A DNA stretch of 37,888 bases, from sequence record DRR378314_1703; one strand, given 5' to 3'. A program made the translations under genes and the position numbers. Numbering within the stretch: the stretch's first letter is position 1; each line of letters starts with the position of its first letter. Below the pieces are notes generated by a model. That model ran no database searches and was not told the origin of the DNA. It saw nothing but the letters and a program-made list of their open reading frames with translations. Positions 10,014-31,427 of this stretch are shown one piece after another.

Positions 10014-10014
10014 C

Positions 10015-12515: not shown

Positions 12516-12529
12516 CGAGCACCCCAATC

Positions 12530-12554: not shown

Positions 12555-12578
12555 TCAAATTGCGCGGAACATCCTGAC

Positions 12579-14534
12579 ATGAAAACGTTTCTTTTTGCGA
12601 TTTTCGCAATTATCTTGTCCTGCTTTGCCGTCAGCGCCCAAGACAGTGCAATCCAGCCGTTGTTGCAGGAAAACCAGGCGTTAATTGCCAAAAGTTCCCG
12701 CAAAACCATCGGGCCGGTGATTGATGCGATTGCCGATAGCAGAATGGCTCAGGCGCAAAGCGTCTTGGAAAACTGGGCGGCAAAAGACATGTGGATGCGC
12801 AAGTCTGACGGGCTATTTTTCAAAGGTGAAGCCGCTGCAGATCGGCACATCCAACTGATTGATTTTGATAGCCGCGAGGTGGTCGGAACCGTTGCCAAGT
12901 CAGATCTAAAACAGCTTAAACCCAATAGCGGTGTCCGCGCCCTGATCGCCACTGCGCTCGTGCGTTTCCAACTTCTGGACCCGGACAAGTCAAAGCGGCA
13001 AGACGCGCTGACTTCCATTCAGAGAGACCCGAACGGGGAACTTCTCGCGCCATTGCGGGCCTCGATAGAGAAAGAGCTGGATGCCGACCTCAAAGCGCAA
13101 AAGCAGCGGCTAGAACGGCTTTTGACCATCGGTTATGACAGCGACCCAGAAGCGCGTATCAATGCCATCACGGATATGTCCGGCGATCTTGGCGTTGATC
13201 TGCGGGCCACGCTGAACCCTATTGTTGCAACGACACGTGGTGTGGCCCTTGGCGTTCTGCCCGAAAACATCAATCTGGCCGCGACCCTGCAACCGGGCGA
13301 TGACGGGTTTTCGCATGATGATGCCTATGAACTATTGGTCAGAAATAATATGGCCCCGCCGCGCATTTCACCGGATGCCATCCACGCCGCATTGTCCGAA
13401 AACATCGACGGCGGGCGCGTTGCCGGTTTTCCCTTGGTACAAATGAACACCGATGACGCCCGCAGGCTGGCCTATCAGGCCTTGGCCGAAGCGGGCAAGG
13501 TACCGCCCTTTGTAACTGAGACACAGGTGTCCCTGTCGTTGGCGCAACACGTATTTTTCGACAGCTATGCCGACCCGTCACCCCAAGTGACAGAGGCCGC
13601 AGCGAAGGCGTTGAAATCAATCGAACTGAAAGTCGGACTTAACCGCACAATTGATTTACTGCTCGACGCCTTGTCACTGGCCTCGATCTATTTTCTAGCG
13701 GCAATCGGGCTGGCCATCACCTTTGGTGTGATGGGTGTCATCAACATGGCGCATGGCGAATTTATCATGATGGGGGCCTATACTGGATATGTCGTGCAGC
13801 AGATCATCCCTGATCACACCCTCTCGATCATAGTGGCGATCCCAATGGCCTTTGCCGTTACCTTTGCCGCAGGGGTGGCAATGGAACGGCTGGTCATTCG
13901 CTGGCTCTATGATCGCCCGCTTGAGACATTGTTGGCGACCTTCGGCATTTCGATTGCACTGCAACAACTGGCAAAAAACATCTTTGGCACGCAGGCGCGT
14001 CCGCTGACCTCACCGGGATGGCTGGACGGGGCGCTGGTGTTGAACGATGTGGTATCGATCAGTTTTATCCGCATCGCGATATTCTTCCTCGCGCTCTTAT
14101 TCCTCTGCGTGTTCCTGTTCATAATGAAGCGCACCCGGCTGGGGCTTGAAACCCGTGCTGTCACGCAAAACCCGCGGATGGCCGCGTCGATGGGCATCAA
14201 TCCGGGCCGGGTGAACATGCTGACCTTTGGCCTTGGCTCTGGTATCGCAGGTGTTGCCGGGGTGGCGATTGGACTGTTTGCCAAGGTCACATCCGAACTC
14301 GGTTCCGACTACATCGTGCAAAGTTTTATGACCGTAGTTGTCGGCGGCGTTGGCAATATATGGGGCACGCTTGCAGGGGCGGCAATGATCGGCTTCCTGC
14401 AAAAGGGGATCGAATGGTTGAACCCCTCGAACACGCTGGCAGCGCAGACTTACATGATCATCTTTATCATCATCTTTATCCAGTTCCGACCAAGAGGGAT
14501 TATCGCCCTCAAAGGTCGTGCGGCGGGGGATTGA
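12579..14534 (+). CDS. urtB: Urea ABC transporter permease UrtB (large N-terminal periplasmic domain)
   Basis: GLAITFGVMGVINMAHGEF, RPLETLLATFG and SFMTVVVGGVG; position in the operon. Confidence 0.94.
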   Translation: MKTFLFAIFAIILSCFAVSAQDSAIQPLLQENQALIAKSSRKTIGPVIDAIADSRMAQAQSVLENWAAKDMWMRKSDGLFFKGEAAADRHIQLIDFDSREVVGTVAKSDLKQLKPNSGVRALIATALVRFQLLDPDKSKRQDALTSIQRDPNGELLAPLRASIEKELDADLKAQKQRLERLLTIGYDSDPEARINAITDMSGDLGVDLRATLNPIVATTRGVALGVLPENINLAATLQPGDDGFSHDDAYELLVRNNMAPPRISPDAIHAALSENIDGGRVAGFPLVQMNTDDARRLAYQALAEAGKVPPFVTETQVSLSLAQHVFFDSYADPSPQVTEAAAKALKSIELKVGLNRTIDLLLDALSLASIYFLAAIGLAITFGVMGVINMAHGEFIMMGAYTGYVVQQIIPDHTLSIIVAIPMAFAVTFAAGVAMERLVIRWLYDRPLETLLATFGISIALQQLAKNIFGTQARPLTSPGWLDGALVLNDVVSISFIRIAIFFLALLFLCVFLFIMKRTRLGLETRAVTQNPRMAASMGINPGRVNMLTFGLGSGIAGVAGVAIGLFAKVTSELGSDYIVQSFMTVVVGGVGNIWGTLAGAAMIGFLQKGIEWLNPSNTLAAQTYMIIFIIIFIQFRPRGIIALKGRAAGD

Positions 14535-14537
14535 ACC

Positions 14538-15767
14538 ATGCAGCAATCATTTATCACAAAGAACCCTTCGGTGCTGGTGTTTCTGGCCATCCTTGCGTTG
14601 TTTACCCTTGGTGTAACGCTCCTGTCCGAAGGGGCCGGTGCAGGCTTCATCTCTACCAGTTTCATCAAAACACTGGGCAAGACACTGTGCCTTTGCCTGA
14701 TCGCCGTGGCCATGGATCTGATCTGGGGCTTCACCGGCATCCTGAGCCTTGGTCACTTCGCCTTCTTTGGCCTTGGCGGATATATGATTGGCATGTGGTT
14801 GATGTATGAACGCACGCGTCTGATCGTGGTTGAATCTCTGTCCCAAAGCGAAATCCCTGCCACGACTGCCGAAATCACCGACGCCATCGGGCACCAGATT
14901 TTCGGCGTGGTCGGATCCAGCGACTTCCCCCTCATCTGGGCCTTCGCCGACAGTCTCTTTCTGCAACTGGCCCTGGTGGTCATCGTTCCCGGCATCCTTG
15001 CGCTGATCTTTGGCTGGTTGGCCTTTCGCAGCCGCGTGACCGGCGTATATCTATCGATCCTGACGCAGGCCATGACGCTCGCCCTCGCGCTTTATCTATT
15101 CCAGAATGACAGCGGTTTGCGGGGCAACAACGGGCTTTCCGGCTTGCAGAACCTTCCTGGGGTCACGGCTCCGCAAGACATGGTATCCCTGTGGTTCTTC
15201 TGGGGGTCGGCGCTGGCGCTTGGGCTGGGCTACATGTTGGCCGCATGGATCGTTTCGGGGAAATTCGGCTCAGTGATACGCGGCATTCGCGATAACGAAG
15301 CACGGGTGCGGTTCCTTGGCTATTCGGTCGAGGTGTATAAGCTGGTTTTCTTTACACTTACGGCCTGCATCGCTGCCATTGCAGGGGCTCTGTACTATCC
15401 GCAGGCAGGCATCATCAACCCGGCCGAAATCGCCCCTATTGCGTCGATCTATCTGGCTGTCTGGGTCGCCATTGGCGGGCGCGGGCGGTTGTATGGCGCG
15501 GTCATCGGCGCGGCTTTGGTCAGTTTGTTATCGTCTTGGTTCACAGGCGGGCAGGCACCAGATATCCCACTGGGCTTTGCCACCATCAAATGGGTGGATT
15601 GGTGGTTGGTCCTGCTGGGGTTGTCGTTTGTTTTGGTGACATTGTTTGCACCCAAAGGCATCGGCGGGCTGATTGATCTCTGGACCGAGCGGCGCACGCC
15701 TGATCGCCATGGTGCTGACCTTGGCCCCGATGCTGGTGCATTGCGCGAACAGGAGGCCCAGCAATGA
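14538..15767 (+). CDS. urtC: Urea ABC transporter permease UrtC
   Basis: DLIWGFTGILSLGH, FRSRVTGVYLSILTQA, IRDNEARVRFLGY and WVAIGGRG. Confidence 0.94.
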   Translation: MQQSFITKNPSVLVFLAILALFTLGVTLLSEGAGAGFISTSFIKTLGKTLCLCLIAVAMDLIWGFTGILSLGHFAFFGLGGYMIGMWLMYERTRLIVVESLSQSEIPATTAEITDAIGHQIFGVVGSSDFPLIWAFADSLFLQLALVVIVPGILALIFGWLAFRSRVTGVYLSILTQAMTLALALYLFQNDSGLRGNNGLSGLQNLPGVTAPQDMVSLWFFWGSALALGLGYMLAAWIVSGKFGSVIRGIRDNEARVRFLGYSVEVYKLVFFTLTACIAAIAGALYYPQAGIINPAEIAPIASIYLAVWVAIGGRGRLYGAVIGAALVSLLSSWFTGGQAPDIPLGFATIKWVDWWLVLLGLSFVLVTLFAPKGIGGLIDLWTERRTPDRHGADLGPDAGALREQEAQQ

Positions 15768-16504
15768 GGACGCTTCTCGAAGTATCTGGCGTTTCCGTCT
15801 CTTTCGACGGGTTTCGCGCTATCAACAACCTGTCCTTTCGCGTGGCCGAGGCAGAGTTACGCGCCGTGATCGGTCCGAATGGCGCAGGCAAGACCACCTT
15901 CATGGATATCGTGACAGGCAAAACAAAACCCGATGAAGGGCGCGTGATCTGGGGTGAAAAATCGGTGTCCTTGCTGAAAATGAGCGAGGCCAAGATCGCA
16001 CAGGCCGGTGTCGGGCGAAAATTTCAGAAACCCACAGTTTTTGAGGACCAGACGGTGCAGGAGAACCTGCAAATGGCATTGAAAAAACCACGCGGTTGGC
16101 TGGCGGTGCTTGGGTATAGGACAAGCACCGATGACCTCGAGAAAATCGCGGATCTGGCGAAACAGATCGGTCTAAGTGACGCGCTGACACGTAAATCGGG
16201 CGAATTGAGCCATGGCCAGAAACAATGGCTTGAGATTGGCATGCTGTTGGCACAGGAGCCCCGTCTGCTGCTTGTCGATGAACCTGCCGCCGGTATGACG
16301 CCGGAAGAGCGTGAACACACTACAGATATTCTGCTTGAGGCGGCCAGAACCCGCGCCGTTGTTGTCGTTGAACATGATATGGATTTCGTGCGCCGGCTCA
16401 ATTGCAAGGTCACGGTGCTGCATGAAGGGTCGGTTCTGGCCGAAGGCAGTCTTGATCACGTGACCTCAAACCAAGACGTGATCGACGTCTATCTGGGACG
16501 GTAG
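15764..16504 (+). CDS. urtD: Urea ABC transporter ATP-binding protein UrtD
   Basis: VSFDGFRA, GPNGAGKTT, GRKFQKP, LSHGQKQWLEIGM and DEP. Confidence 0.95.
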   Translation: MRTLLEVSGVSVSFDGFRAINNLSFRVAEAELRAVIGPNGAGKTTFMDIVTGKTKPDEGRVIWGEKSVSLLKMSEAKIAQAGVGRKFQKPTVFEDQTVQENLQMALKKPRGWLAVLGYRTSTDDLEKIADLAKQIGLSDALTRKSGELSHGQKQWLEIGMLLAQEPRLLLVDEPAAGMTPEEREHTTDILLEAARTRAVVVVEHDMDFVRRLNCKVTVLHEGSVLAEGSLDHVTSNQDVIDVYLGR

Positions 16505-16507
16505 GAT

Positions 16508-17203
16508 ATGTTGAAACTTGAAAACCTCACACTGCACTACGGGCATTCTCAAATTCTCAATGGCATTTCGATGGAGGCTGCGCAGGGTGAAGTAACCTGT
16601 GTCATGGGCACCAATGGCGTTGGCAAAACCAGCCTGATCAAGGCGATTTCGGGCACGCATCCGCGCTCTGGCGGGGCGGTCCATTTTGATGGGATCGAAC
16701 TGGGTGTGTTTCCGGCGCATAAACTGGCCCATCTGGGTATCGCGTATGTCCCGCAGGGCCGCGAGATCTTTCCACTAATGTCCGTACGTGAAAACCTTGA
16801 GACCGGTTTTGTTTGTTTGCCCGCCGAAGAACACTTCATCCCCGACCAGATTTTCGAGCTGTTTCCCGTGCTAAAAGAGATGCAAATGCGACGGGGCGGC
16901 GACCTATCGGGAGGTCAGCAGCAACAGCTGGCAATTGCGCGGGCACTGATCACCAAGCCAAAGCTGTTGCTTCTGGATGAACCAACCGAAGGGATTCAAC
17001 CCAATATCATCCAGCAAATTGGCAATGTCATCCGCCTGTTGCGCGATCAGGGTGACATGGCAATTGTGCTTGTCGAACAATATTTTGAATTCGCCTATAA
17101 TCTGGCCGACCGCTTTGTCGTTTTGCGGCGCGGGGAGGTTATCTTGCAAGGCGCAAAGCAGGATCTGTCCAAAGCCGAAGTTTTGAAAGGTGTTTCCGTG
17201 TGA
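16508..17203 (+). CDS. urtE: Urea ABC transporter ATP-binding protein UrtE
   Basis: GTNGVGKT, YVPQGREIFP, GGDLSGGQQQQL and DEPTEGIQP. Confidence 0.95.
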   Translation: MLKLENLTLHYGHSQILNGISMEAAQGEVTCVMGTNGVGKTSLIKAISGTHPRSGGAVHFDGIELGVFPAHKLAHLGIAYVPQGREIFPLMSVRENLETGFVCLPAEEHFIPDQIFELFPVLKEMQMRRGGDLSGGQQQQLAIARALITKPKLLLLDEPTEGIQPNIIQQIGNVIRLLRDQGDMAIVLVEQYFEFAYNLADRFVVLRRGEVILQGAKQDLSKAEVLKGVSV

Positions 17204-17340: not shown

Positions 17341-18066
17341 CTACAGCGTCAGCGTTCCAATGCTGGACCCGCCGCAGACAAAAAGCGTCTGCCCTGTCAC
17401 AAAACTATTTGCAGGATCGCAGAAGAACAGGAAGGCGTTGGTGACATCCTGCACCTGCCCCAGACGCCCGACCGGAATGCGTTTGGTCAATTCCGCTTCG
17501 CGTTCGCTTTCCTTGGGAATAATCCCCCAAAAATTGTCTGTTTGTACCGGGCCGGGTGCCACAACATTCACTGTAATGCCGTGCGGTGCCAGTTCCAGCG
17601 CCCATGTGCGCGCCATTCCGATCATACCCGCCTTTGATGCAGAGTAAGCCGTGCGTGTCGGCGCACCCAGGGCCGCCCGCGATGCATTGAACATGACGCG
17701 TCCGAAACCACGCTCTTTCATTCCCGGCAGAAATGCTTGCAGCAATGTCAGAGCAGAGCCGAGATGTAATTGTGCCAATCCGGTGATGTCATCCGGTTTT
17801 GCGTCTTCGATCAGATTGGGCCAGATCAATCCGGCGTTATGAACCAAATGGGTCACCTCGTAACGCGCGGCAATATCGGCGGCCGCCTGCGCCACTGACG
17901 CAGGATCCAGTAAATCCGCCTCGATATGTTCGCAACCTTCGGCGCTCCACTCTGCGATATTACGTGCAATGGACACCACACGGTACCCCCGTTCCAGCAG
18001 ACGTTGTGCCAGATCTGCGCCAATGCCTTTACTCCCGCCGGTAATGACGGCTGTGTGTTCAGTCAT
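17341..18066 (-). CDS. Classical short-chain dehydrogenase/reductase
   Basis: TGGSKGIG, HNAG, YSASK and NVVAPG. Start at ATG 18066, overlapping the upstream TGA. Confidence 0.92.
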   Translation of the reverse strand: MTEHTAVITGGSKGIGADLAQRLLERGYRVVSIARNIAEWSAEGCEHIEADLLDPASVAQAAADIAARYEVTHLVHNAGLIWPNLIEDAKPDDITGLAQLHLGSALTLLQAFLPGMKERGFGRVMFNASRAALGAPTRTAYSASKAGMIGMARTWALELAPHGITVNVVAPGPVQTDNFWGIIPKESEREAELTKRIPVGRLGQVQDVTNAFLFFCDPANSFVTGQTLFVCGGSSIGTLTL

Positions 18067-18845
18067 TCGATGTCTCCGGGTATCAGGGCCAGCACGCGCA
18101 GCGGGCTGCCGGTGCCGCCTTTGATCTTCAGCGGTGGCGCGATCAGCATCGCACCGGTCGGCGGCAGCTGGTCCAGATTGCACAGGCATTGCAGCCCGTA
18201 TTTTCCAGCCCCATGTAGCAGGTAATGTGCCGGATAAGGCGGTTCATAGTGCATCCCCTGCCCTGCGTCGGTGCCCACTGTTTCCGTGCCGAAACCACGG
18301 ATACCGCGTTCCAGCAGCAGCGAAATGGCCGCTGGTGTCGGCCCCGGCGAATGTGGGCCGTCCTCGCGCATATTCAGGTAATCAGTACCGCGCCGCCGCG
18401 ACCAATCACTGCGCATCAGCACCCATACCCCTGAGGGGATCTTGCCGTGCTGATCTTCCCAGGCAGTGATGATGTCGGGCGTCAGCTCAAAGTCATCGTC
18501 GCTGGCGGCCCCATCGGAACAGTCGAGCACAACCACAGGTCCGACAAAAGCCTCGACCGGAATTTCATCAACCGCACCCGCCGGTACATCTTTGCCCGAA
18601 ATCCAGTGAATAGGTGCATCAAAATGCGTGCCTGTGTGTTCGTTCAGCGTCAGGTTGTGCCATTTCCATGCCGGGCCGCGATGATCGTAGGCAGACACCT
18701 CCTCCATCCGAAAGCGCGCGCATTGGCCAAACTCCGGCGGCAATACGATCACCGGGAAATCGGCGTCCAATGTATGTGTCAGGTCGACGATCCTTGCCTG
18801 CCCGCCCGCAAGAGCTGCGGCCAGCCCTGTGATTGCATCGCTCAT
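18063..18845 (-). CDS. Cyclase/kynurenine formamidase-family metallohydrolase, isatin hydrolase-like
   Basis: EHTGTHFDAPxH metal motif, GTDAGQ and PLKIKGGTGSPLR. By recollection very close to Labrenzia aggregata isatin hydrolase A (e.g. FPVIVLPPEFGQCARFRMEE.SAYDHRGPAWKWHN). Confidence 0.88.
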   Translation of the reverse strand: MSDAITGLAAALAGGQARIVDLTHTLDADFPVIVLPPEFGQCARFRMEEVSAYDHRGPAWKWHNLTLNEHTGTHFDAPIHWISGKDVPAGAVDEIPVEAFVGPVVVLDCSDGAASDDDFELTPDIITAWEDQHGKIPSGVWVLMRSDWSRRRGTDYLNMREDGPHSPGPTPAAISLLLERGIRGFGTETVGTDAGQGMHYEPPYPAHYLLHGAGKYGLQCLCNLDQLPPTGAMLIAPPLKIKGGTGSPLRVLALIPGDIE

Positions 18846-20089
18846 GAATGTCCCCCGCGCGTTTCACGTTCCAACAACGCCGGATCGGACAGCCACCGGT
18901 CAAGCGCATCTGTGGCGATATCCCCACATGCGACCTCTTCCAGCCCGTCAACCAAGCCGTCGATGACCGTCCGCGCCAGCGCTTTGGGTGACACCTTGGG
19001 CGGCAGCAATGGCTGGTGCCAAGCGTCATCAACCGGGCCTGTATAGACATTCATCACCCGCAACCCCGACGCACTGAACTCGCCACGCATGGTCTGGGCA
19101 ACGGATCGCGCCGCCGCTTGGCTCGCCGCAAAACCACCAAATCCCATATCCGGTGCCAGCGCCTGTACTGACAGAATATTAACCCATGCCACCGCAGCGT
19201 TGATTCCGTCTGCGGTACGTGCGCACATCGCAGGGCCGAACCCCTGGGCCAGTCGCATCAGGCCCAGCACATTGGTTTCCAATCCGTCGCGGGCAAAAAC
19301 CGTATCGCCAGCCACCACCCCACCGGGGCGGATGAATTGCGCGGTGTTGATTAAAATATCAACCTTCCCGCCGATTTCTGCCGCCAGTCGCGCAACAGAG
19401 GCCGTGTCGGTCACATCCAGCGGCATCAGCGCCACGTTTTCCATCGCCGCCAATGCCTCCCGGCCTTCCCATCGCCGCCAGCTTTCCGCTTCCCCAAGAA
19501 AGATGGTCGTCGCCCCGGCGCGCTGCAATGCTTCGGCCAAGGGTTGTGCAAGAGGCGAACGCGCATCAGTGATCAGGACGCGCCGGTGTTTCGGGTCGCA
19601 CGACATCGCGCGGAGCATCGGATCATCCTGCATCGTTTCACTTCCTTTCAGCGGCAGCGCCACCATGACGCCCTGTCCGGCCTTATCCAATTTCAATGCC
19701 ATGCGTACGCCATCACCGCGCGCAACCTCGCCATGCAGATGGCAGACAACAACCGGCCCCGCTGCAAGTTGGACCGAGCCCATCCGCCATGGCAAACGTT
19801 CACGGAAATAGGGGTCGGGCGAGACCCGAATGGTGGTTTGCGCCAGCACCTGCGCGGCGGGATCAGTCAAACGCCACTCAAGGGCTACAGACAGACATTT
19901 GCAGCAAGCATCGCGCGGCGGGTATTGAACCGCACCGCAGTCCACACAGTGTTGCAGCGCAAATTGTCCCCGCGCAGCCGCAATGCCCAGACCCAATGCC
20001 GCGCGCGATCTCTTCACCGGCGGCAGCGTCGGTACAACGGTCCTTTTTTGCGGGTCTTTTGGTGCCGGAACCGGCAGCGGTTTGGTCAT
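18842..20089 (-). CDS. DUF35-type Zn-ribbon/OB-fold domain fused to a degenerate SDR domain
   Basis: CVDC...YPPR..CCKC Zn ribbon plus OB fold. C-terminal Rossmann-like region has TDARSPLA in place of TGxxxGxG and FAASQ in place of YxxxK. Start ATG 20089. Confidence 0.85.
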   Translation of the reverse strand: MTKPLPVPAPKDPQKRTVVPTLPPVKRSRAALGLGIAAARGQFALQHCVDCGAVQYPPRDACCKCLSVALEWRLTDPAAQVLAQTTIRVSPDPYFRERLPWRMGSVQLAAGPVVVCHLHGEVARGDGVRMALKLDKAGQGVMVALPLKGSETMQDDPMLRAMSCDPKHRRVLITDARSPLAQPLAEALQRAGATTIFLGEAESWRRWEGREALAAMENVALMPLDVTDTASVARLAAEIGGKVDILINTAQFIRPGGVVAGDTVFARDGLETNVLGLMRLAQGFGPAMCARTADGINAAVAWVNILSVQALAPDMGFGGFAASQAAARSVAQTMRGEFSASGLRVMNVYTGPVDDAWHQPLLPPKVSPKALARTVIDGLVDGLEEVACGDIATDALDRWLSDPALLERETRGGHS

Positions 20090-21255
20090 CTGCCCGATCC
20101 TTCGATAATAGCCGCAGCAGAGCAAACACCGCGATCATAGTTGATCATGCCAAAGCCTGACACCATTGCGCGACGGGCATCTGCCACCTGCGTGCCGCCT
20201 GCCTGCCCGGTGACTTGCCGGATGGCTTCGACCAAGCCGAGATATCCCCCCGCTGCCCCGGCCTGCCCAACAGAGAGCTGCCCCCCGGACGTGTTATGCG
20301 GAAAATCACCAGAGATCGTCAGATCGTGGTCACGCACGAAACCAGCTCCCTCTCCCTTGGCACAAAATCCCAAATCTTCGAATTGCATCATCGAAATAAC
20401 CGGATAGTCGTCATAGGTCTGCAACAGGTCAATTGCTTCGGGGCCATGGCCAGCCATGCTGTACAACTCGTCTATGTCCATCACCCAGCCACCGCGCAGC
20501 TGGATCGGATCGTCGGCAAAGCCATTGTGCCGCTCGATTGTTCCGCTGATACGGGCAAAAGGCAGCGCGCGCTGTTTTGCCTCCTCTTCGCGCATGACCA
20601 GAAACGCTTCCGCGCCAGCACAGGGCATGACACAATCAAACAACGAAATCGGGTCTGCTATCATACGTGCGTCCATATATTGCGACAGCGTCAAAGGTGT
20701 CTTCATCAACGCATCTGGATAGAGCAGCGCATTGGCCCGCTGCGCCACCGCGATCTTGCCGAAATCCTCGCGGGTGGCCCCATATTCAGCCATGTAAGCA
20801 TCCATCAGTAGCGCGAAACTGGCATTCGGGCCGCCGAAACCATAAGGGAACGTGGCATCCATCGAAAACCGCGAGAACCCGGTCAGCAAGGTCCGAAAAC
20901 TGTCAATTCGATTGGCGTCCCCCGCCACACAGGCCACCACATCTACATCCCCGGCCTGCACCGCGCGCGCAGCACGACGCAGCGCAATCACGCCACTGGC
21001 GCCGCCTGTCGGCACGGTATCCAACCATCGCGGGCAAAGCCCGAGGTGCTGTGTCAACCCTACCGGCGTATCAGGAAACAGCGAAAAGCTGGACACGGAA
21101 AACCCATCAAGATCACGCGGTGCAATATCCGCCTGCTCCAGCATGGCGCGCAACGCGCGCGCGATCCACCAATGTGCGGTTTCGTTGCTGTAGCGAATGT
21201 AGGGCACGGAGACCGGCACCGCGAGCACGACCCCATCATAACCCTGCCGCTTCAC
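20086..21255 (-). CDS. SCP-x/Ltp2-type thiolase-fold protein
   Basis: AQRANA..P.A, PISLFDC, YDDY and NTSGGQLS. The nucleophile position reads TGGASG (no Cys). GTG start 21255 with SD GGAG, overlapping the upstream TGA. Confidence 0.87.
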   Translation of the reverse strand: MKRQGYDGVVLAVPVSVPYIRYSNETAHWWIARALRAMLEQADIAPRDLDGFSVSSFSLFPDTPVGLTQHLGLCPRWLDTVPTGGASGVIALRRAARAVQAGDVDVVACVAGDANRIDSFRTLLTGFSRFSMDATFPYGFGGPNASFALLMDAYMAEYGATREDFGKIAVAQRANALLYPDALMKTPLTLSQYMDARMIADPISLFDCVMPCAGAEAFLVMREEEAKQRALPFARISGTIERHNGFADDPIQLRGGWVMDIDELYSMAGHGPEAIDLLQTYDDYPVISMMQFEDLGFCAKGEGAGFVRDHDLTISGDFPHNTSGGQLSVGQAGAAGGYLGLVEAIRQVTGQAGGTQVADARRAMVSGFGMINYDRGVCSAAAIIEGSGR

Positions 21256-22877
21256 GAGGCACTCCGTTTTTTCAGGTGGCGGGTATCGATGGTTGCAGGA
21301 TCTTTGATCAACGCGACCGCCTGCGATTTCAACACTGCACGTTGCAGTTTCTGTGTGGAGGTCAGCGGCAGCGCACTGACAAAATTGATAAATCCGGGAG
21401 CCTTGTAATAGGCAAGTTGGCTCAGGCACCAGGTCGTGATTTCATGGGCCAGCTTTGCCGGATCATCTGGGCTCTGCTTGGCTACGATGCAGGCAAATAC
21501 CTCATCACCGCGCACCGCATCAGGTACCGCGGCAACCGCTGCGCTGGCGATGTCAGGGTGGCGCATCAGGGTCGATTCCACCTCAACTGCGGCAATGTTT
21601 TCGCCGGATCGACGAATAACGTTTTTCTTGCGGTCGACAAAGAACATCGCCCCATCTGCCTCTTGCCGCACGATATCGCCGGTGTGAAACCAGCCATCGG
21701 CCCAGACTTCATCCGTCGCTGCCTTATTCTTGAAATACCCTGCAAAGAAACCTCTGCGCGGATCTTCACCGGCGCGCCGTACCAGAAGTTCCCCCTGCGC
21801 AGCCTCAGCACCGGCATCATCAACCAGACGCACCTCAAGGCCGGCATCAGGCTTGCCAAGGCAGCTTTCTCCGACCCGGCGCGGTTCGCGGTTGGCACAG
21901 ATCACCGCCCCTGCCCCCGTCTCGGTCATTGCCCAGGCCTCGACCAGTCGAAAACCAAAACGCGCCTCGAAATCGGCGTGCAACTTGGGGTCAACACCCG
22001 CGCCAAAGCCAAAGCGCAGCCTGTGATCCCGATCACCCGAATCCGGTTCGACCGCCATCAACATCGACGGCATAACGCCCAGGTAATGCAGGCAAGTCGC
22101 ACCGGAAGCGCGCACCGACGCCCACCAGCTGCGCGGATGAAACCGATCCAGCACCGTAAGGCATCCGCCCACAGCAATCATTGCCATAAAGGAATAGGCC
22201 ATCGCGTTCATGTGGAAGATCGGCAGTGGCGTAATCATGCGCTCGCCATCCGTCTTTAGTGCACAAAGCCCGCCGGTCTGTGCATACCAGCGTCCAGCGT
22301 CGAGAAAATATGTGTTGGTCAGGATACAGCCTTTAGGCTGACCAGTGGTGCCCGATGTATAAAGCAGTGCCGCCTCTGCATTTTCACTGCCCCCCTCGCG
22401 CGCCGCAATTGCATCTTGCGTAACCGGCAAGGGCCACGGCTCATCAGTTGCGATCACCGGCATTTCGCGTCCCGCCTCGGCGGCTGCCGCACGCAGTTCT
22501 GCACATCGTTCAGGCAGCGCTAAGGCCAGCACCGGTTCCGCATGCTCGATCATATAGCTTAGCTCCGCCGCGCGCAGATCCGGGTTCACCGGCACCACCG
22601 ACAGGCCCAACCCATTCAGGGCCAGCCACCAAAGAAAGAACGCGGGCCGGTTTTCCAGCAGCAGCATTACCCGTTGCCCTGAGCGATAATCGGCTTCGCG
22701 CACAGCCACCTGCAGTTCGCTGACTTGATCCATCGCCGCAGCATAGGTCATATCCCCGACAGTAATGTCGTAGATACCAGCGGTTTCCGGCAAAACATTC
22801 AGAAATGCGCGATCAGGATAACATTTTGCGGTAGCCTCAAAAGCGGCAAAGACCGAAGTGGTCTCGGGTGCGATCAT
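21252..22877 (-). CDS. AMP-binding acyl-CoA ligase (CaiC-like)
   Basis: YTSGTTGQPKG, AMTETG, GWFHTGD, VDRKKNVIRRSGENI and LPLTSTQK. Start ATG 22877. Confidence 0.93.
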   Translation of the reverse strand: MIAPETTSVFAAFEATAKCYPDRAFLNVLPETAGIYDITVGDMTYAAAMDQVSELQVAVREADYRSGQRVMLLLENRPAFFLWWLALNGLGLSVVPVNPDLRAAELSYMIEHAEPVLALALPERCAELRAAAAEAGREMPVIATDEPWPLPVTQDAIAAREGGSENAEAALLYTSGTTGQPKGCILTNTYFLDAGRWYAQTGGLCALKTDGERMITPLPIFHMNAMAYSFMAMIAVGGCLTVLDRFHPRSWWASVRASGATCLHYLGVMPSMLMAVEPDSGDRDHRLRFGFGAGVDPKLHADFEARFGFRLVEAWAMTETGAGAVICANREPRRVGESCLGKPDAGLEVRLVDDAGAEAAQGELLVRRAGEDPRRGFFAGYFKNKAATDEVWADGWFHTGDIVRQEADGAMFFVDRKKNVIRRSGENIAAVEVESTLMRHPDIASAAVAAVPDAVRGDEVFACIVAKQSPDDPAKLAHEITTWCLSQLAYYKAPGFINFVSALPLTSTQKLQRAVLKSQAVALIKDPATIDTRHLKKRSAS

Positions 22878-23353
22878 GGCAGCAACTGAATATTGCGAAA
22901 GGCTGCATCGCAATTGACGATATCAACCCGCTTGTTGGCGATGCGCAGCTTGCCCTCAACCAATGCCAGTTCATGCCGCGCGGTGACGGCAAGCAGCTGC
23001 TGTTCGTCCAGACGCGTTTCGACATAATGCATGAACGTCGTGGTCACGAACTGGCCTGCGTCCTCGTCCATCTCATCCACGAAAGGCCGCTGGATTACGT
23101 GGTGACAACGGCTTTTGGGTTTCTGGCTGAAAGTACGCGCGCCCATCAGGCGTTCCACCCGCAGCTTGAGCATGAACATATCTTCATACATCAAAGAGGT
23201 CTCGTTGATCGGATCGGTCTGTTTATAGTCCAGCGGCATCCAATAGTGGCCATCAGGCAACCACAGATTCAGCCACTCGGCAAAACGTCCCTCGTCCAGC
23301 ATGCGTACTTCGTCATAGATGAAATCAATCAGGCGCTCGCGTGTAACGGTCAT
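22874..23353 (-). CDS. Aromatic ring-hydroxylating dioxygenase beta subunit (IadE-like)
   Basis: FIYDEVRMLDEGRFAEWL..W...G.YWMP, LKLRVERL and SQKPKSR. Directly follows the alpha subunit. Confidence 0.93.
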   Translation of the reverse strand: MTVTRERLIDFIYDEVRMLDEGRFAEWLNLWLPDGHYWMPLDYKQTDPINETSLMYEDMFMLKLRVERLMGARTFSQKPKSRCHHVIQRPFVDEMDEDAGQFVTTTFMHYVETRLDEQQLLAVTARHELALVEGKLRIANKRVDIVNCDAAFRNIQLLP

Positions 23354-24693
23354 TCTGCAACCTCCGCATTTTTGTCCATTCCCATGGTCATGAACTTGAC
23401 CCATGCATGGAACTGATTGCGCATCTGACGTTCGGTGGTACCGTTTTCGACTGCTTCGACATCAAAATCTTCGTCATCTTCGATCAGACGTTGGATATTG
23501 ACCCACTCCAACCCGTCAACCAACAGCCCCTCCTGCGCGCGCTCGTACATTTCCAGATCATCATGCCCCACAATAGAGGTCGGCGCATTGATCATCCGAT
23601 TGTACATAGCCGTGCGCGCGGTCAATTCTTCAGGTGCGTCAACCAGCCGGTAAATGTAGCTTTCCACAATTGTCCTATCCGCCGCCAACGGGATAAAGAC
23701 CCGCAGCTGCTGGATTGGACCTTTGATCATGATATTCGGAAAATATACTGTATTGTGGCGATTTTCATCCAGGATCGCCTTGGCCTTATCCGCGCCATAG
23801 CTGGCGCTCAAGGCTTCGAAATATCCCGGAATGGCAGAATAATCCGAATGGATTGAATGGTTCACCCCGGTGTGCCCATGCCCATTTGGCCAGGTGCGAA
23901 TGCCCATCCCCTCAAAGAATTCATAAGGCGACATAAAAGGCGCGATAATCTCCATCGCAGCGGGTTTTGGGGCGTCTTCGGGCAGGTCCAACTCTTCGTA
24001 AAGCTTGACCGCCGTCCCGGCAGAACTTTCATGCGCGACCATCGGGTGACATGTATCAGTCTGGTTTTCGACCAGCATCTTCCAATTGCAATAATGCAGA
24101 TAGCGTAGCGGCGGACCAACGACCTCAAGCCGCCCAGCGGGAGAACGGTCCACCATGTTATCAAGTGATGAAAGGCTATCGCCAAAGAACTCCTCAAAGC
24201 TGATGCCTGTCTCGGCCAGTCGCGCAAAGATGAAGCCCCGGTAATTTTTCACATCACCAACCGCGCGCATGCCCTTGCCGCTTTCCGTCTTTTCCAGCCC
24301 GGTGTCCTGATAACCTTTCTTCAGCGGAATCGCCAAAAGGCAGCCATCGGTCTTGAACGACCATGCGTGATAAGGACAACGGAAAAACTTGCCGGTGTTG
24401 CCCTGCCGGTCAATTACAATCTTGGTGCCCTTATGCGGACAACGGTTCAACAGGACATGGATATCACCCGTGGAATGGCGCACCTGGATCACCGGCTGAT
24501 TGCCAATCTGTGTGCTGAAGTAGTCACCCCTGTTGGGCGTCTGGCTTTCATGGCCGACAAATACCCAGGCATTGGCAAAGAGATGTTTCATCTCCTGCTG
24601 GTAAACTTCCTGATCTGTATAGATGTCGCGATGAACCTGATGTGGTTGAACAAGTGCTGCCAACGCCGCAGGGTTGTCGGTGTAACGTCCCAT
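23350..24693 (-). CDS. Rieske aromatic ring-hydroxylating dioxygenase alpha subunit (IadD-like)
   Basis: Rieske CPH...CPYH and mononuclear Fe site NWK..VEN..DTCHPMVAH...HDD. SD GGGAG before ATG 24693. Confidence 0.95.
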   Translation of the reverse strand: MGRYTDNPAALAALVQPHQVHRDIYTDQEVYQQEMKHLFANAWVFVGHESQTPNRGDYFSTQIGNQPVIQVRHSTGDIHVLLNRCPHKGTKIVIDRQGNTGKFFRCPYHAWSFKTDGCLLAIPLKKGYQDTGLEKTESGKGMRAVGDVKNYRGFIFARLAETGISFEEFFGDSLSSLDNMVDRSPAGRLEVVGPPLRYLHYCNWKMLVENQTDTCHPMVAHESSAGTAVKLYEELDLPEDAPKPAAMEIIAPFMSPYEFFEGMGIRTWPNGHGHTGVNHSIHSDYSAIPGYFEALSASYGADKAKAILDENRHNTVYFPNIMIKGPIQQLRVFIPLAADRTIVESYIYRLVDAPEELTARTAMYNRMINAPTSIVGHDDLEMYERAQEGLLVDGLEWVNIQRLIEDDEDFDVEAVENGTTERQMRNQFHAWVKFMTMGMDKNAEVAE

Positions 24694-24704
24694 AATATTC
24701 TCCC

Positions 24705-25658
24705 TCAAATATCCAGCACAAGGCGGGGCGACTTTGACCGGCTGACGCAAATCTGCATTACCTTTCCCGCAGCACGCTCTGCCTCTGATAAAACCACATC
24801 CCGGTGGTCCGGTGTGCCGCTGATCACATCACATTGGCAAATGCCACAATCGCCGCGCTGGCAATCATACATCACATCGACCCCACCCTCTTCCAATGCC
24901 TCAATGATGGACTGTCCCGGAATGACGGTGAACACCGCCCCTGTTGACGCAAGTTCAACTTCAAAAGCGGTATCACCCACCTCTTCCTGTGGTGCGTCAA
25001 ACAATTCGAAATGAATCCGCGCTGCCGCGATCCCGGCCGCCTCGGCCTTTGCCTTTGTTGCATCAATCAAACCCTTGGGGCCACAGACATACAGATGCGC
25101 GGTTGGCGCCAGATCCGCAATCACCCCATCAAGGTCCAATGCAGAAAGCGGATCGTCGTCACAGTGCAGATGCAGCTTGTCACCAAGTGATCCCCGCAGC
25201 ACATCGCGATAGGCCATCAACGATGCACTGCGGCCGGAATAGTGAAATACAAATTCTTGTTGGTGGTCCATTAATGTCATCGCCATCGAGATCATCGGCG
25301 TGATGCCGATCCCCCCCGCAAGAAGCACAGCCGGCGCATCAAGGTTCAGCGGAAAATCATTCTTGGGCAGCGCGCAGCTAATCGCCGCCCCGGCCTCAAG
25401 CCCGTGCATATATTTGGAGCCACCCTTTCCTTCCGGTTCACGCTGTACCGCGATCCGGTATTCCTGCGGCGTGGGGCTGATCGGTTCAAACGCAATAAGA
25501 GAATAGGCACGGGTTTCGCCGTCAGGCAGATCAAACAGCACGTGTGCACCCGGCGCAAAGGTAGGCAGCGCCGCGCCATCCGTCGACGCCAGACGAAATT
25601 CGCTGATGCGTTCCGTCAACGGAGTTACTTGCGTAATCTTAGCTTCAATTTTTGACAT
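24705..25658 (-). CDS. PDR/VanB-family FMN/[2Fe-2S] oxidoreductase (IadC-like)
   Basis: RAYSL, GGSKY, AGGIGITP, YVCGP and C-terminal ferredoxin CQRGDCGIC...QIC. Confidence 0.94.
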   Translation of the reverse strand: MSKIEAKITQVTPLTERISEFRLASTDGAALPTFAPGAHVLFDLPDGETRAYSLIAFEPISPTPQEYRIAVQREPEGKGGSKYMHGLEAGAAISCALPKNDFPLNLDAPAVLLAGGIGITPMISMAMTLMDHQQEFVFHYSGRSASLMAYRDVLRGSLGDKLHLHCDDDPLSALDLDGVIADLAPTAHLYVCGPKGLIDATKAKAEAAGIAAARIHFELFDAPQEEVGDTAFEVELASTGAVFTVIPGQSIIEALEEGGVDVMYDCQRGDCGICQCDVISGTPDHRDVVLSEAERAAGKVMQICVSRSKSPRLVLDI

Positions 25659-25679: not shown

Positions 25680-25708
25680 AATATGATTTTTCATGTATTT
25701 TTGGTCAA
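25680..25708 (-). promoter_or_regulatory. Sigma70-like promoter of the dioxygenase operon overlapped by a putative MarR operator
   Basis: Minus strand TTGACC-N17-CATATT. The motif AATACATGAAAAATCATAT (25681-25699) covers the spacer and the -10 element. Confidence 0.65.
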
Positions 25709-25793
25709 GGGTTTTCTTGCCATCAGTGACCATCACGGTCATTTAAGAGCCGCCGGACGCGTTTCTATCCGGCCTATCAAAGGGTTGAGCCGC

Positions 25794-26282
25794 GTGTCGC
25801 AACAGATTACGGAACCAGTTACTGAAGAAAACGGGGCGCAAGGCGCGGCATTTGTCCCCGATTACCTGCTCTATCTTCTGGCCGCGGCCAGCGAAGCGGC
25901 CAGTGCGCAGTTTCACGCAAAGGTCCGCAAGATGGGTTTGCGGGTGCCGGAATGGCGCGTATTGGCCTGCCTTGCAGATCAAGATGGCGCGATGATCACC
26001 CACCTCGCACGCATCGCCTTGGCAGAGCAGTCCCGATTGACCCGTATCATCGCCCAAATGGAACAGCGCGGGCTGTTGACCCGCCGCAACGACCCCGCAG
26101 ACGGGCGTCGCGTTCGGGTTTTCTTGACGGATCAGGGGCGTGACTTGGCGGCAACACTGGTGCCCCAGGCCCGCGAACATGAAACCGCCCTGTTAGAGCT
26201 ATTGCAAGGCAAGGAGGGTGCCCAACTTAAACCCGCCCTAAAGTCGTTACTGAAAGTGCTGGAGGCCAGTTCGCCGGAGTAA
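25794..26282 (+). CDS. MarR-family transcriptional regulator (IadR/IacR-like)
   Basis: FVPDYLLYLLA...EWRVLACL...QSRLTRII..ME.RGL..R...DGRRVRVFLT..G. Likely GTG start 25794. Confidence 0.9.
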   Translation: MSQQITEPVTEENGAQGAAFVPDYLLYLLAAASEAASAQFHAKVRKMGLRVPEWRVLACLADQDGAMITHLARIALAEQSRLTRIIAQMEQRGLLTRRNDPADGRRVRVFLTDQGRDLAATLVPQAREHETALLELLQGKEGAQLKPALKSLLKVLEASSPE

Positions 26283-26350: not shown

Positions 26351-26415
26351 ACTTGGTGAGCGCGCCAAAGGCGCTCCCATCAAGTCATATCAAACGATAT
26401 GGGGAGGAGCCCGAA

Positions 26416-27435
26416 ATGACCAAAATCACCAAGTTTCTGACGACGTCAGCCTTGGCACTCTGTACCGCTACAGGTGCCTTTGCTGCCGAAACCCTGACAA
26501 TCTCGACCTGGCTGCCACCAACACATCCGGTCAACACCGGCATGTTTGCCAAACTGACCGAAATGATGTCCGAAGCCACCGGCGGCGAGATCACAACCGA
26601 ACTTAAGAACGGCCTGGCCCCGCCCCCGGCACAGATGGATCTACTGCTGGATGGTGCTGCGGATATCGCGATCCTGTTTCATGGATACACCCCCGGCCGT
26701 TTCGTGGGCACCAAACTGGTTGAGGTACCCGGCTATGAAGGCAGCGCCGAGGCCGCTTCAGTCGCACATTGGCGTGTACATGAAGCGATGCTGGCGGAGC
26801 TGAACGAACATCGTGGCGTGAAAGTCATCGCGCTGACCACACATGGTCCGGGTCAGATCCACTCTAACAAGGAAGTAAATACCCTTGATGATCTGCAAGG
26901 GTTGAAAACCCGCCTTGGGGGCGGTGTTTCGGCTGATGTCGGAGCGGAACTCGGGCTTGTCGGCATTCAGGTACCTGCCCCCAAAGTCTATGAAACACTG
27001 GATTCCGGTGCCGCCGACGCAGTGGCGATGAATATGGGCGAACGGATCAGCTTCAAATTGGATGAAGTTGCCAAAAACGTCTATGAAATGCCCGGCGGTT
27101 TCTACCGCGGTTCTTTTGCGGTCATCATGAGTCAGGAAAAATTCGACAGCCTGCCGGAAGAGATGCAAACCGCATTGGACGAACAGGTTTTTGGTGAACC
27201 TTCCAGCCGCATGATGGGTGCCGTCTGGGATCAAAGCGATGTTGATGCACGCGCCAAGACCGAAGCGGCGGGTGACAATACAATCGTCACCGCCTCCGCT
27301 GAGGACCAATCCCGCTTTGCCGAAATGGCCGCGCGGGTGCGTGATAAAATCATTGCAGAAATCACTGATGCAGGGATCGACGGTGAGGCCGCATATGAGA
27401 TGATGCGCGCGGAAATGGCTGCGGCAAACAAGTAA
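26416..27435 (+). CDS. TRAP transporter substrate-binding protein (DctP family)
   Basis: Signal peptide, WLPPTH, GYTPGRF, LQGLKTR (conserved Arg) and YETLDSG. SD GGAGGAG. Confidence 0.92.
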   Translation: MTKITKFLTTSALALCTATGAFAAETLTISTWLPPTHPVNTGMFAKLTEMMSEATGGEITTELKNGLAPPPAQMDLLLDGAADIAILFHGYTPGRFVGTKLVEVPGYEGSAEAASVAHWRVHEAMLAELNEHRGVKVIALTTHGPGQIHSNKEVNTLDDLQGLKTRLGGGVSADVGAELGLVGIQVPAPKVYETLDSGAADAVAMNMGERISFKLDEVAKNVYEMPGGFYRGSFAVIMSQEKFDSLPEEMQTALDEQVFGEPSSRMMGAVWDQSDVDARAKTEAAGDNTIVTASAEDQSRFAEMAARVRDKIIAEITDAGIDGEAAYEMMRAEMAAANK

Positions 27436-27495
27436 CCGACGTTGGCAGCCGGGCACAGGCGTTGCTTGCGCCCGGCGCGACCGCAAGGGAATTCC

Positions 27496-27999
27496 ATGCG
27501 CTCTTTGATCCGCCTTTTCGAAATCGTTTCTGTTATTCCGATGGTGATGGCCTCTTTGGCGCTGTTTGCGCTGATGGGGCTGACCTTCGCTGATGTACTG
27601 ATGCGCTCATTGTTCAACGCGCCGATACAGGCAGCGACCGAGCTGATCCGCATCGGCATTGCACTGATTGTCTTTTCCGCCCTCCCGATCCTGTCGGCCC
27701 GTGAAGGACATATCGCAGTCGATCTGCTGGACGGCCCCTTTGCCCGCTTCGGGCTGGAGCGCTGGCGCAATGCGCTGGTCACCTTAAGCTGCGGTGCGAT
27801 GCTTTGGTTGCCGGCGCAGCGCGTGGTTGATCTGGCCTATCGCGCGCGCAGCTATGGGGATGTCACGGAATACCTTGAAATTCCAACGTTCTATATCGGC
27901 ATGTTTATCGCCGCCATGACCTTTCTGACTTCAATTGTACTGATTGTACGCGGCCTTTTTTATCTCTTCGCCCCCCAGCTTCTGGACACATCCAAATGA
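27496..27999 (+). CDS. TRAP transporter small permease (DctQ family)
   Basis: ADVLMRSLFNAPI..ATEL and HIAVDLL, with four hydrophobic segments. Confidence 0.9.
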   Translation: MRSLIRLFEIVSVIPMVMASLALFALMGLTFADVLMRSLFNAPIQAATELIRIGIALIVFSALPILSAREGHIAVDLLDGPFARFGLERWRNALVTLSCGAMLWLPAQRVVDLAYRARSYGDVTEYLEIPTFYIGMFIAAMTFLTSIVLIVRGLFYLFAPQLLDTSK

Positions 28000-29309
28000 T
28001 TGCATCCGCTATCGGTTTCGCCGCCGTGTTCCTTCTTGTTCTGCTGCGTATCCCGATTGCTTTTGCGATGGGTTTTGTCGGCATGGTCGGGCTTGTCTAT
28101 GAAACCAGCTACCGCGCCTCCATTTCAATGGTGTCACGGCTGATCATCGACACCAGTCAGGATTACGGCCTGTCCGTGATCCCACTGTTCATCCTCATGG
28201 GGCTCTTCGTGAACAAGGGCGGCATCAGCCGCGAGCTTTATCAAGTGTCCAATGCTTTTCTGGGGCATTTTCGCGGAGGGTTGGCGATGGCGACAATTGT
28301 CGCCTGCGGGGGCTTTGCCGCGATCTGTGGTTCCTCCCTCGCAACGGCCGCCACGATGTCAAAGGTCGCTATGCCGGAAATGCGAAAGTTCGGCTATGCT
28401 GACAGCCTGTCGACCGCCTCCATCGCGGCGGGCGGAACACTGGGCATTTTAATCCCACCTTCTGTCATTCTGGTAATCTATGGCCTTCTGACCGAGACTT
28501 CTATCGGGGCTTTGTTCATCGCTGGCATCATTCCGGGGTTCCTTGGCATTCTTTTCTATCTGGGCGCCGTCCGGTATTCCGTAGCAATGAACCCGGAATC
28601 CGGCCCCGCTGGGCCGCGCGCCACCTGGCGCGAACGGCTGCATGCGCTGAATCACGTCTGGTCTGTACTGGCGCTCTTTGCACTGGTGATTGGCGGCCTT
28701 TACGGCATATTGGATTTCTGGCCAATCCATCTGGCGTTTTCCCCAACTGAAGCTGCCGGCATGGGGGCAGCAGGTGCTTTCCTGATTGCCTTGGCGCGCG
28801 GGGGCCTGAACTGGCGTGCTCTGCGTGAGGTGCTGGAAGAAACAACCCTTACCACGGCATCGCTTTTTGCCGTTCTTATCGGGGCATGGATTTTCTCCAA
28901 CTTCGTCAACCTCGCTGGCCTGCCCGAAGGCTTGCTTGCCATGGTGACCGCTTTGGAACTTGGGCCTTGGGTGGTCATGGGGCTGATCTTGCTGATTTAC
29001 ATTGCATTGGGATGTATATTTGAAAGTATGTCGATGCTGTTGCTGACGGTGCCGATCTTTTTCCCACTGGTCACCAGCCTTGGATTTGATCCGGTATGGT
29101 TCGGCATCATCGTTGTTGTCGTGACGGAAATCAGCCTGATCACACCGCCCGTGGGGCTGAACGTCTTTGTTCTGAAGGGTGTTGTCGGCGATGTCAGCAC
29201 TGGCACAATCTTTCGCGGTGTAACCCCTTTCTGGATTGTCGACATCCTGCGCTTGCTGCTGCTGCTCGCCTTTCCAGCTCTGGTGCTTTTCTTACCATCG
29301 CAAATGTAA
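27996..29309 (+). CDS. TRAP transporter large permease (DctM family)
   Basis: IPLFILMG, CGSSLATAA, GGTLGILIPPS, SPTEAA and LITPPVGLNVFV. Confidence 0.94.
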   Translation: MIASAIGFAAVFLLVLLRIPIAFAMGFVGMVGLVYETSYRASISMVSRLIIDTSQDYGLSVIPLFILMGLFVNKGGISRELYQVSNAFLGHFRGGLAMATIVACGGFAAICGSSLATAATMSKVAMPEMRKFGYADSLSTASIAAGGTLGILIPPSVILVIYGLLTETSIGALFIAGIIPGFLGILFYLGAVRYSVAMNPESGPAGPRATWRERLHALNHVWSVLALFALVIGGLYGILDFWPIHLAFSPTEAAGMGAAGAFLIALARGGLNWRALREVLEETTLTTASLFAVLIGAWIFSNFVNLAGLPEGLLAMVTALELGPWVVMGLILLIYIALGCIFESMSMLLLTVPIFFPLVTSLGFDPVWFGIIVVVVTEISLITPPVGLNVFVLKGVVGDVSTGTIFRGVTPFWIVDILRLLLLLAFPALVLFLPSQM

Positions 29310-31415: not shown

Positions 31416-31427
31416 CAGCATACTTGA

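Follow-up and report, generated by a model that had tools for sequence, protein, structure and literature searches.

A cysteine-less thiolase-fold protein of the iad auxin degradation operon is predicted to release isatin by retro-aldol cleavage

Background

How do bacteria that carry the iad operon cut the side chain of auxin (indole-3-acetic acid, IAA) from its ring? The question is raised by positions 18063..22877 of a 37,888-nucleotide stretch of DNA from sequence record DRR378314_1703 (the window, by which we mean the whole stretch). This segment, part of a Sulfitobacter-like genome, is iadF-G-H-I of the known iad auxin degradation operon, and the carbon-carbon cleavage step of the pathway has so far rested on database labels. 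A preliminary description of the DNA had proposed that a coenzyme A (CoA) ligase, a thiolase-fold protein without the catalytic cysteine and a DUF35 protein convert dioxindole-3-acetate by way of its CoA ester to isatin and acetyl-CoA, in a retro-aldol reaction modelled on that of the steroid-degrading enzyme Ltp2. Judging from the residues and by analogy with characterised enzymes, we consider it probable that IadF forms dioxindole-3-acetyl-CoA, that IadG together with IadH splits it into isatin and acetyl-CoA, and that IadI hydrolyses the isatin.

Results and Discussion

The minus strand of the window carries eight genes in the order reductase, Rieske large subunit, Rieske small subunit, CoA ligase, thiolase-fold protein, fusion of DUF35 with a short-chain dehydrogenase/reductase (SDR), cyclase and SDR, and from iadE to iadJ every start overlaps the preceding stop by 4 bases. 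All features that the preliminary description had placed at 18063..22877 lie there, on this strand. The CoA ligase and isatin-hydrolase-like genes that it saw on either side of the thiolase-fold gene are iadF and iadI, and the intact SDR is iadJ, just outside these coordinates.

21252..22877, minus strand, ATG at 22877: iadF, acyl-CoA ligase of 541 amino acids (Pfam AMP-binding and AMP-binding_C; ligase motifs intact)
20086..21255, minus strand, GTG at 21255: iadG, cysteine-less thiolase-fold protein of 389 amino acids, predicted retro-aldolase (from residues, Protein Data Bank (PDB) match and fold)
21001..21003, minus strand: IadG Gly85, site of the thiolase nucleophilic Cys (alignment and model)
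20404..20415, minus strand: IadG Tyr281-Asp282-Asp283-Tyr284, with Tyr281 as predicted base and Asp283 as predicted acid (aligned with YDCY of Sal and YDHF of Ltp2)
20263..20280, minus strand: IadG Gln326 to Gln331, counterparts of Sal Gln347 and Gln352 (equally far from the catalytic Tyr in both proteins)
18842..20089, minus strand, ATG at 20089: iadH, whole gene of the DUF35-SDR fusion (start read from the sequence)
19652..20089, minus strand: iadH, N-terminal DUF35 domain with Cys4 zinc ribbon and OB fold (Pfam zf-ChsH2 and OB_ChsH2_C)
18842..19588, minus strand: iadH, C-terminal domain of SDR fold whose catalytic motifs have decayed, probably without enzymatic activity (residues and fold)
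18063..18845, minus strand, ATG at 18845: iadI, cyclase of 260 amino acids, isatin hydrolase orthologue (match to isatin hydrolase A)
17341..18066, minus strand: iadJ, intact SDR of 241 amino acids (Gly motif, Ser, Tyr, Lys; role from the Variovorax preprint)

That the window holds a member of the known iad locus follows from gene order, the IadD match and the IadR-type MarR regulator. The order from iadC to iadJ is that of the Variovorax table in PMC12852158. IadD matches 9O71, which a preprint (bioRxiv 10.1101/2025.10.25.684584) gives as Variovorax IadDE, at E 4e-171, far ahead of the next family (1e-39), and the regulator is closest to 3CDH, a MarR protein of Ruegeria pomeroyi with reported IAA binding at 0.24 uM. 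A search of PMC10374108 for an operator motif of the regulator yielded none. IadG itself shares 99% identity with a protein named from Sulfitobacter pacificus, and a database protein 100% identical to it also has 389 amino acids.

Orthologues were pooled in three sets, which share one locus and together give 138 rows for IadG: the best 80 of 581 confirmed loci (set 1, L001-L080); 30 loci of betaproteobacterial type, 29 of which supplied an IadG row, from the 30 genomes that had a match among 401 sampled in one family (set 2); and loci from the best 30 of 53 matching genomes among 61 of a Variovorax-like genus, which are close kin and not independent (set 3). The loci of set 3, with an IadD about 95% identical to 9O71, stand in for IadG and IadH of Variovorax CL014. 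Folds were compared by Foldseek and VIA.

By its residues, IadG is not a Cys-dependent thiolase. The motif DTVPTGGASG, in which the absence of the nucleophilic Cys had first been noted, spans residues 79-88, and its Gly85 is present in 135 of the 138 rows, the other three being gaps. A Cys nucleophile in the active site had been named at the outset as a refutation. In alignment, Gly85 falls on the Cys in the archaeal thiolase 7YVY and on a Gly in the thiolase-fold retro-aldolases Sal and Ltp2; in the IadG model (predicted local distance difference test score, pLDDT, 86.1; predicted template modelling score, pTM, 0.90) it stands at the start of helix 84-101. The two other motifs singled out at the outset, QTYDDY and NTSGGQL, are found at residues 279-284 and 321-327, and Tyr281, Asp282, Asp283, Tyr284, Gln326 and Gln331 are each kept in 137 of 138 rows (one gap, no substitution). 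Because they are conserved across the orthologues, the motifs are not chance resemblances. Gln331 occupies the site of the GHP His, Asp283 is the third residue of the XDCX motif, and Gly367, without substitution among the aligned rows, lies at what we take to be the CxG acid-base Cys site. IadG therefore has no nucleophilic Cys where helix 3 begins, and neither the GHP His nor an acid-base Cys of the CxG or HDCF type; the same holds for the 30 loci of set 3. Cys378 was considered as the acid-base Cys and rejected, since 36 of 138 rows have Ala, Ser or Gly there.

What, then, would such a site do? The closest solved relative is Sal (9MYR), a bile-acid retro-aldolase with acetyl-CoA as product (PMC12329534). 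It is the top PDB match of IadG by sequence (E 1e-46) and its top fold match by VIA (Z 45.7, root-mean-square deviation 2.7, 366 residues aligned, 30% identity); Foldseek ranks Sal first and Ltp2 second, VIA first and third (Z 43.5 for Ltp2, 6OK1). In Sal, Tyr302 is the base and Cys304 the acid, flanked by Gln347 and Gln352, and a Gly stands at the nucleophile site (PMC12329534). IadG shares this Gly, the catalytic Tyr and both Gln at equal spacing, and further a poorly ordered loop after strand 4 (IadG residues 121-141), a DUF35 partner and, by prediction only, acetyl-CoA as product. It differs in Asp283 for Cys304, in Pro or Ala for Gln161, in an extra Asp-Arg loop (372-376; Asp374-Arg375 in 136 of 138 rows) and in its predicted substrate, a small oxindole with a tertiary alcohol rather than a steroid. 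Whereas the DUF35 domain of Sal's partner is fused to a hydratase, that of IadG's partner is of the Cys4 type and fused to an SDR-fold domain.

Ltp2, on which the preliminary description had built, is thus the more distant model by sequence and fold. What stands of that comparison is the shared fold, the Gly at the nucleophile site, the first catalytic Tyr and the Cys4 DUF35 partner, here from ChsH2 (6OK1; residues per PMC12329534), together with a reaction, predicted in the case of IadG, that splits a tertiary beta-hydroxyacyl-CoA and leaves a ketone; the differences are Asp for His296, Gln for Tyr344 and a predicted acetyl-CoA in place of propionyl-CoA. The Ltp2 motif GGQLGEAY, as quoted at the outset, and the reading of its second Tyr as Gln in IadG agree with the alignment and with PMC12329534. 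The conclusion that this Gln marks a variant active site does not survive, and Gln331 was rejected as a new variant, since in Sal the counterpart of Ltp2 Tyr344 is already Gln (PMC12329534). The genuinely new element of IadG appears to be Asp283 in place of Sal's essential Cys304. With an SCP2-type thiolase fold, the Gly, the Tyr of YDxx and a DUF35 partner, IadG has the features common to the Sal/Ltp2 group; it is neither Sal proper (Asp283 for the Cys304 of YDCY) nor Ltp2 proper (Asp283, Gln331).

In a tree of 45 rows, none of them Sal or Ltp2 itself, IadG forms a single clade (100/100) on a long branch, and a YDDF group stands next to it, a placement that carries a long-branch warning. On the 2,4-dichlorophenoxyacetic acid (2,4-D) plasmid pJP4 (L203:5439-8589), genes for a CoA ligase, a thiolase-like protein and an OB-fold protein directly follow tfdA. 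The thiolase-like protein is 36% identical to IadG; its nucleophile site is a Gly, YDDF and the Gln are present, and by these residues the three genes are likely a related aldolase module. The nucleophilic Cys is also missing from all 22 distant thiolase-like matches in a sample of one phylum (L096-L117), where the third residue of YDxx may be Asp, Cys, Ala, Ser or Asn. Cysteine-less thiolase-fold enzymes would accordingly seem to be a wide, mostly uncharacterised set.

The DUF35 protein that had been expected after the thiolase-fold gene is present, not as a protein of its own but as the N-terminal third of IadH, a fusion with a degenerate SDR. All four zinc-ribbon Cys are kept in 79 of 79 rows. 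In Sal-Shy and in Ltp2-ChsH2 a DUF35-type domain binds the aldolase (PMC11321319), and we predict that IadG is likewise bound by the DUF35 domain of IadH. Modelled together, IadG and full-length IadH gave a score of 0.86, against 0.00 for the best control, a mark that 51 of 78 solved pairs and 2 of 108 mismatched pairs reached in the benchmark; the runs of this model agree in at least 93% of contacts, the partner pLDDT is at least 89, and residues 23-142 of IadH touch mostly residues 127-156 and 197-203 of IadG. This score may reflect only likeness to the solved complexes 9MYR and 6OK1. IadH is modelled with confidence as a rigid two-domain unit (pLDDT 92.9, pTM 0.92), whereas Shy, the partner of Sal, is flexibly tethered (PMC12329534).

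The C-terminal domain of IadH has the SDR fold, its Foldseek list being filled by SDR matches. It lacks TGxxxGxG and YxxxK, which we take, for IadH as for IadJ, to be the motifs of classical SDRs: in the window protein Asp175, Pro179 and Ala181 stand at the three Gly, and Phe320 and Gln324 at the Tyr and Lys. The first loop Gly is found in none of 138 rows and Tyr together with Lys in 7 of them; Lys is absent from all 78 aligned rows of set 1, the Ser is kept in 77 of 79, and all 30 rows of set 3 combine Phe with Lys. On these residues the domain is likely a pseudo-enzyme. That it is decaying junk was rejected on a dN/dS ratio of 0.04-0.16 (11 hand-picked pairs, rough method). iadG and iadH are neighbours at 79 of the 80 loci of set 1 and the G-H-I block is found at 78, one miss being a contig end.

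Downstream of the proposed cleavage, IadI matches isatin hydrolase A of Labrenzia (Roseibium) aggregata (5NNA/5NNB) at E 1e-145, with 201 of 251 residues identical (about 80%), the same metal and catalytic residues and no notable difference. The metal ligands, the Asp193-His207 dyad, Gln219 and HxGTHxDxPxH are kept in 76 of 76 rows and in a further 30 of 30 in set 3. For isatin hydrolase A the catalytic residues, a Km of 16 uM for isatin and the absorbance of isatinate at 368 nm have been reported (PMC6117287); the accessible text ties the enzyme to IAA breakdown, not to an operon. On a plasmid of Roseibium aggregatum, the cyclase encoded within the iad cassette agrees with it at 249 of 257 positions (97%), and by this identity and the kept residues the characterised isatin hydrolase is the IadI orthologue. 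Upstream, IadF likely activates dioxindole-3-acetate; at E 1e-45 no solved structure matched it as a substrate template. IadJ is a classical SDR, all 44 rows keeping the Gly motif together with the Ser, the Tyr and the Lys, and the suggestion that the intact SDR is the oxidising enzyme that gives the dioxindole accords with the preprint, which has IadJ making dioxindole-3-acetate in Variovorax.

The literature check that had been advised showed that much of the gene-to-step assignment is in print for Variovorax paradoxus CL014 (PMC9613470, PMC10374108, bioRxiv 10.1101/2025.10.25.684584), whose locus has the same iadC-D-E-F-G-H-I-J order. Compared with the window, the Variovorax-like loci show 58-63% identity in IadG (61-63% in one comparison), 48-50% in IadH and 58-61% in IadI, with the same IadG residues; the version in the window is marine and alphaproteobacterial, includes a TRAP transporter and lacks iadA/iadB and iadK there, and its IadH has lost the Lys kept in the Variovorax-like copies. 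In Variovorax IAA is degraded to anthranilate (PMC9613470 and the preprint), and isatin and isatinic acid were detected in cultures on IAA (PMC9613470). The preprint (2025, revised 2026) reports an unexpected lactone as first iad intermediate and ascribes upstream oxidation to IadJ, CoA activation to IadF and side-chain removal to IadFGH. Deletion of iadF, iadG, iadH or iadI each time led to accumulation of C10H9NO4, most strongly without iadF, and C8H7NO3, the formula of isatinate, built up only with the whole locus. It has thus been shown in print for Variovorax that none of F, G, H and I is dispensable and that all four work downstream of C10H9NO4. Going by annotation, the preprint takes IadG for a ketothiolase and IadH for an alcohol dehydrogenase that carries out a reductive removal to C8H7NO2. 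By their residues, the proteins fit neither these labels nor that of IadI as a broad amidase.

The CoA ester, the retro-aldol step, the residue roles and dioxindole as a side product are what we infer beyond this. No paper stating a retro-aldol reaction at IadG was found in a literature search that left most subscription journals outside; the word 'aldol' does not occur in the accessible text of the two preprint versions (figures aside) or of PMC9613470, no function is given for IadG in that of PMC10374108 or PMC12852158, and IadG is not named in PMC11630574. Retro-aldol chemistry, which we regard as likely, and the Tyr/Asp site are thus absent from the searchable papers. The 'iad' cluster of Pseudomonas LY1 was rejected as a homologue, being of the iac type (PMC8383072).

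How would the cleavage proceed? A thiolase needs a beta-ketone, and the tertiary alcohol at C3 of the substrate cannot be turned into one. Once IadF has formed the CoA ester of dioxindole-3-acetate, Tyr281 would take the proton of the tertiary 3-OH, as Tyr302 does in Sal, the C3-CH2 bond would break to give isatin and the acetyl-CoA enolate, and Asp283, at the place of Sal Cys304 beside the two Gln, may protonate the enolate; its role as general acid is a guess from its position. IadI would then hydrolyse isatin to isatinate, and the SDR domain of IadH would likely have been kept as a scaffold or for ligand binding rather than as a dehydrogenase. Given the reactivity of the ketone isatin, the step is expected to be reversible, and IadI would therefore pull the cleavage forward. 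Without IadI, dioxindole-3-acetate would back up, as C10H9NO4 does, because the aldol reaction is reversible, and other reductases would convert the surplus isatin to dioxindole. A cleavage by IadG and DUF35 followed by IadI would also account for the fixed G-H-I block and for the need for IadH despite its dead SDR motifs, and isatinate as final product for the build-up of C8H7NO3. Taken together, retro-aldol cleavage is supported as the best fit to residues, fold, partner domain, next enzyme and published knock-outs.

Several observations weigh against this mechanism. IadG has neither of the known general acids (Sal Cys304, Ltp2 Tyr344), and exchange of Sal Cys304 for Ser, His or Ala abolished activity (PMC12329534). 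The oxyanion-hole residues Ltp2 His296 and Sal Gln161 are absent too, with Pro or Ala at the latter site. True thiolases reach Z scores of 43.7 and 43.2, a small gap to the 45.7 of Sal, so that fold alone is not decisive and the residues have to decide. As to IadH, Lys is present in 29 of 30 and Tyr with Lys in 7 of 30 rows of set 2, and 5U4S, the nearest solved relative of its SDR domain, binds NADP. Finally, it is C8H7NO2, the formula of dioxindole, and not isatin that accumulates without iadI according to the preprint; to read it as a side reduction of isatin takes an extra assumption and is the weak point of our proposal.

But might IadG be a ketothiolase (EC 2.3.1.16) after all, acting through an acyl-cysteine intermediate, as its database names and the annotation-based reading of the preprint have it? 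Four of its Cys are highly conserved (109, 208, 212 and 298), and Cys212, in 134 of 138 rows, counts against our reading here. However, Sal and Ltp2 too have a Cys at the counterparts of positions 109 and 298, as has Ltp2 at that of 208, and Cys212 is Val in two loci (the other two rows being gaps); with Gly at the nucleophile site, Gln for the His, Gly and Asp at both acid-base Cys sites and a substrate without a beta-keto group, we regard this as highly improbable. It is quite unlikely, if less so, that IadG and IadH follow some other cysteine-free route, act on another substrate such as a lactone or a ring-opened CoA ester, or release acetate by thioester hydrolysis. The preprint's accessible text holds no detection of CoA intermediates in Variovorax, the first intermediate did prove to be a lactone, and IadG has an invariant C-terminal loop of its own and a long branch from other thiolase-like proteins; yet free C10H9NO4 peaks in the iadF deletion, the C8 product formed without IadI implies that the side chain leaves before the ring is opened (preprint), and Sal obtains acetyl-CoA from the same scaffold (PMC12329534).

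The retro-aldol step itself would stand in one further alternative, in which IadH reduces isatin with NAD(P)H through its SDR domain, a reductase of atypical kind, and the dioxindole so formed on the main path is re-oxidised or opened by IadI. Here C8H7NO2 in the absence of iadI would be the expected intermediate, in keeping with the authors' description of a reductive removal (preprint) and with an older Bradyrhizobium scheme that puts dioxindole before isatin (quoted in PMC8383072). The domain is moreover under purifying selection and, in the model, packed rigidly on DUF35, and it keeps the Ser almost throughout and the Lys in one clade. Set against this are the missing first loop Gly, the rarity of Tyr with Lys, both of which the window protein lacks, and the Phe for Tyr in every Variovorax-like row; furthermore, the IadI orthologues are isatin hydrolases, and opening of dioxindole would give C8H9NO3, not the reported C8H7NO3. 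We consider a reducing IadH unlikely. Counting it in, the retro-aldol step as such becomes highly probable from the residues and the Sal/Ltp2 analogy.

The wider locus adds the following features.

22874..23353, minus strand: iadE, oxygenase small subunit (Pfam Ring_hydroxyl_B)
23350..24696, minus strand: iadD, Rieske oxygenase large subunit (E 4e-171 to 9O71)
24705..25658, minus strand: iadC, reductase (Pfam Fer2 and NAD_binding_1)
25683..26282, plus strand: iadR-like MarR regulator, true start probably further in (best PDB match 3CDH, E 4e-47)
26353..29309, plus strand: TRAP (tripartite ATP-independent periplasmic) transporter, candidate IAA uptake system (Pfam DctP, DctQ, DctM)

The MarR gene and the TRAP transporter diverge upstream of the iad genes, and a DctP homologue is present at 29 of the 80 loci of set 1. 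Genes for a copper amine oxidase, an aldehyde dehydrogenase and a FeaR-like regulator adjoin the iad locus at 29373-33957 on the minus strand; the first two, at 70-71% identity, also flank iad in L036 and L043, and by annotation they could supply IAA from tryptamine. On the other side, at 5714-17203, lies an ordinary urease cluster with a urea ATP-binding cassette (ABC) transporter, convergent with the end of iadJ. Plasmid-borne copies occur too: iadG is found on plasmids of 190-540 kb in 13 Sulfitobacter and 10 Roseibium/Labrenzia records, with the full operon in both records that were opened.

Half of set 1 (40 of 80 loci; e.g. L044, L051, L072, L080) has no iadD within 8 kb. Compared with the 40 loci that have it, these related loci more often carry a hydantoin-racemase-like gene (24 versus 3), an Ohr/OsmC gene (21 versus 1) and a luciferase-like monooxygenase (17 versus 0). 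In four genomes with such a locus that were searched, iadD was found elsewhere in three. Speculatively, loci without a nearby iadD may represent another entry, such as C3 oxygenation of 2-oxindole-3-acetate.

Conclusions

Our proposal in full is that IadG has a third type of thiolase-fold retro-aldolase site, Tyr/Asp as opposed to Tyr/Cys in Sal and Tyr/Tyr in Ltp2, and acts on a non-steroid substrate in a rigid complex with a non-enzymatic DUF35-pseudo-SDR protein; that isatin is formed directly, the published order of dioxindole before isatin and three gene labels being wrong; that the module also travels without a Rieske oxygenase; and that a sister group with the same Asp lies by tfdA on pJP4. 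That all of this holds jointly we rate only somewhat above an even chance.

Root and marine bacteria dispose of auxin through the iad pathway, which is also being transferred to engineered commensals of plants. For its cleavage step the reading given here names a bond, the products and two residues; with the gene-to-step map largely published, it is a correction of mechanism within a known pathway and not a new system. If it is true, the reverse reaction would join acetyl-CoA to isatins and give chiral 3-hydroxy-oxindoles, IadH would be reassigned as a mostly structural subunit, a solved isatin hydrolase would be tied to its operon, and aldolases of the Sal/Ltp2 type would extend beyond steroids with a new acid residue.

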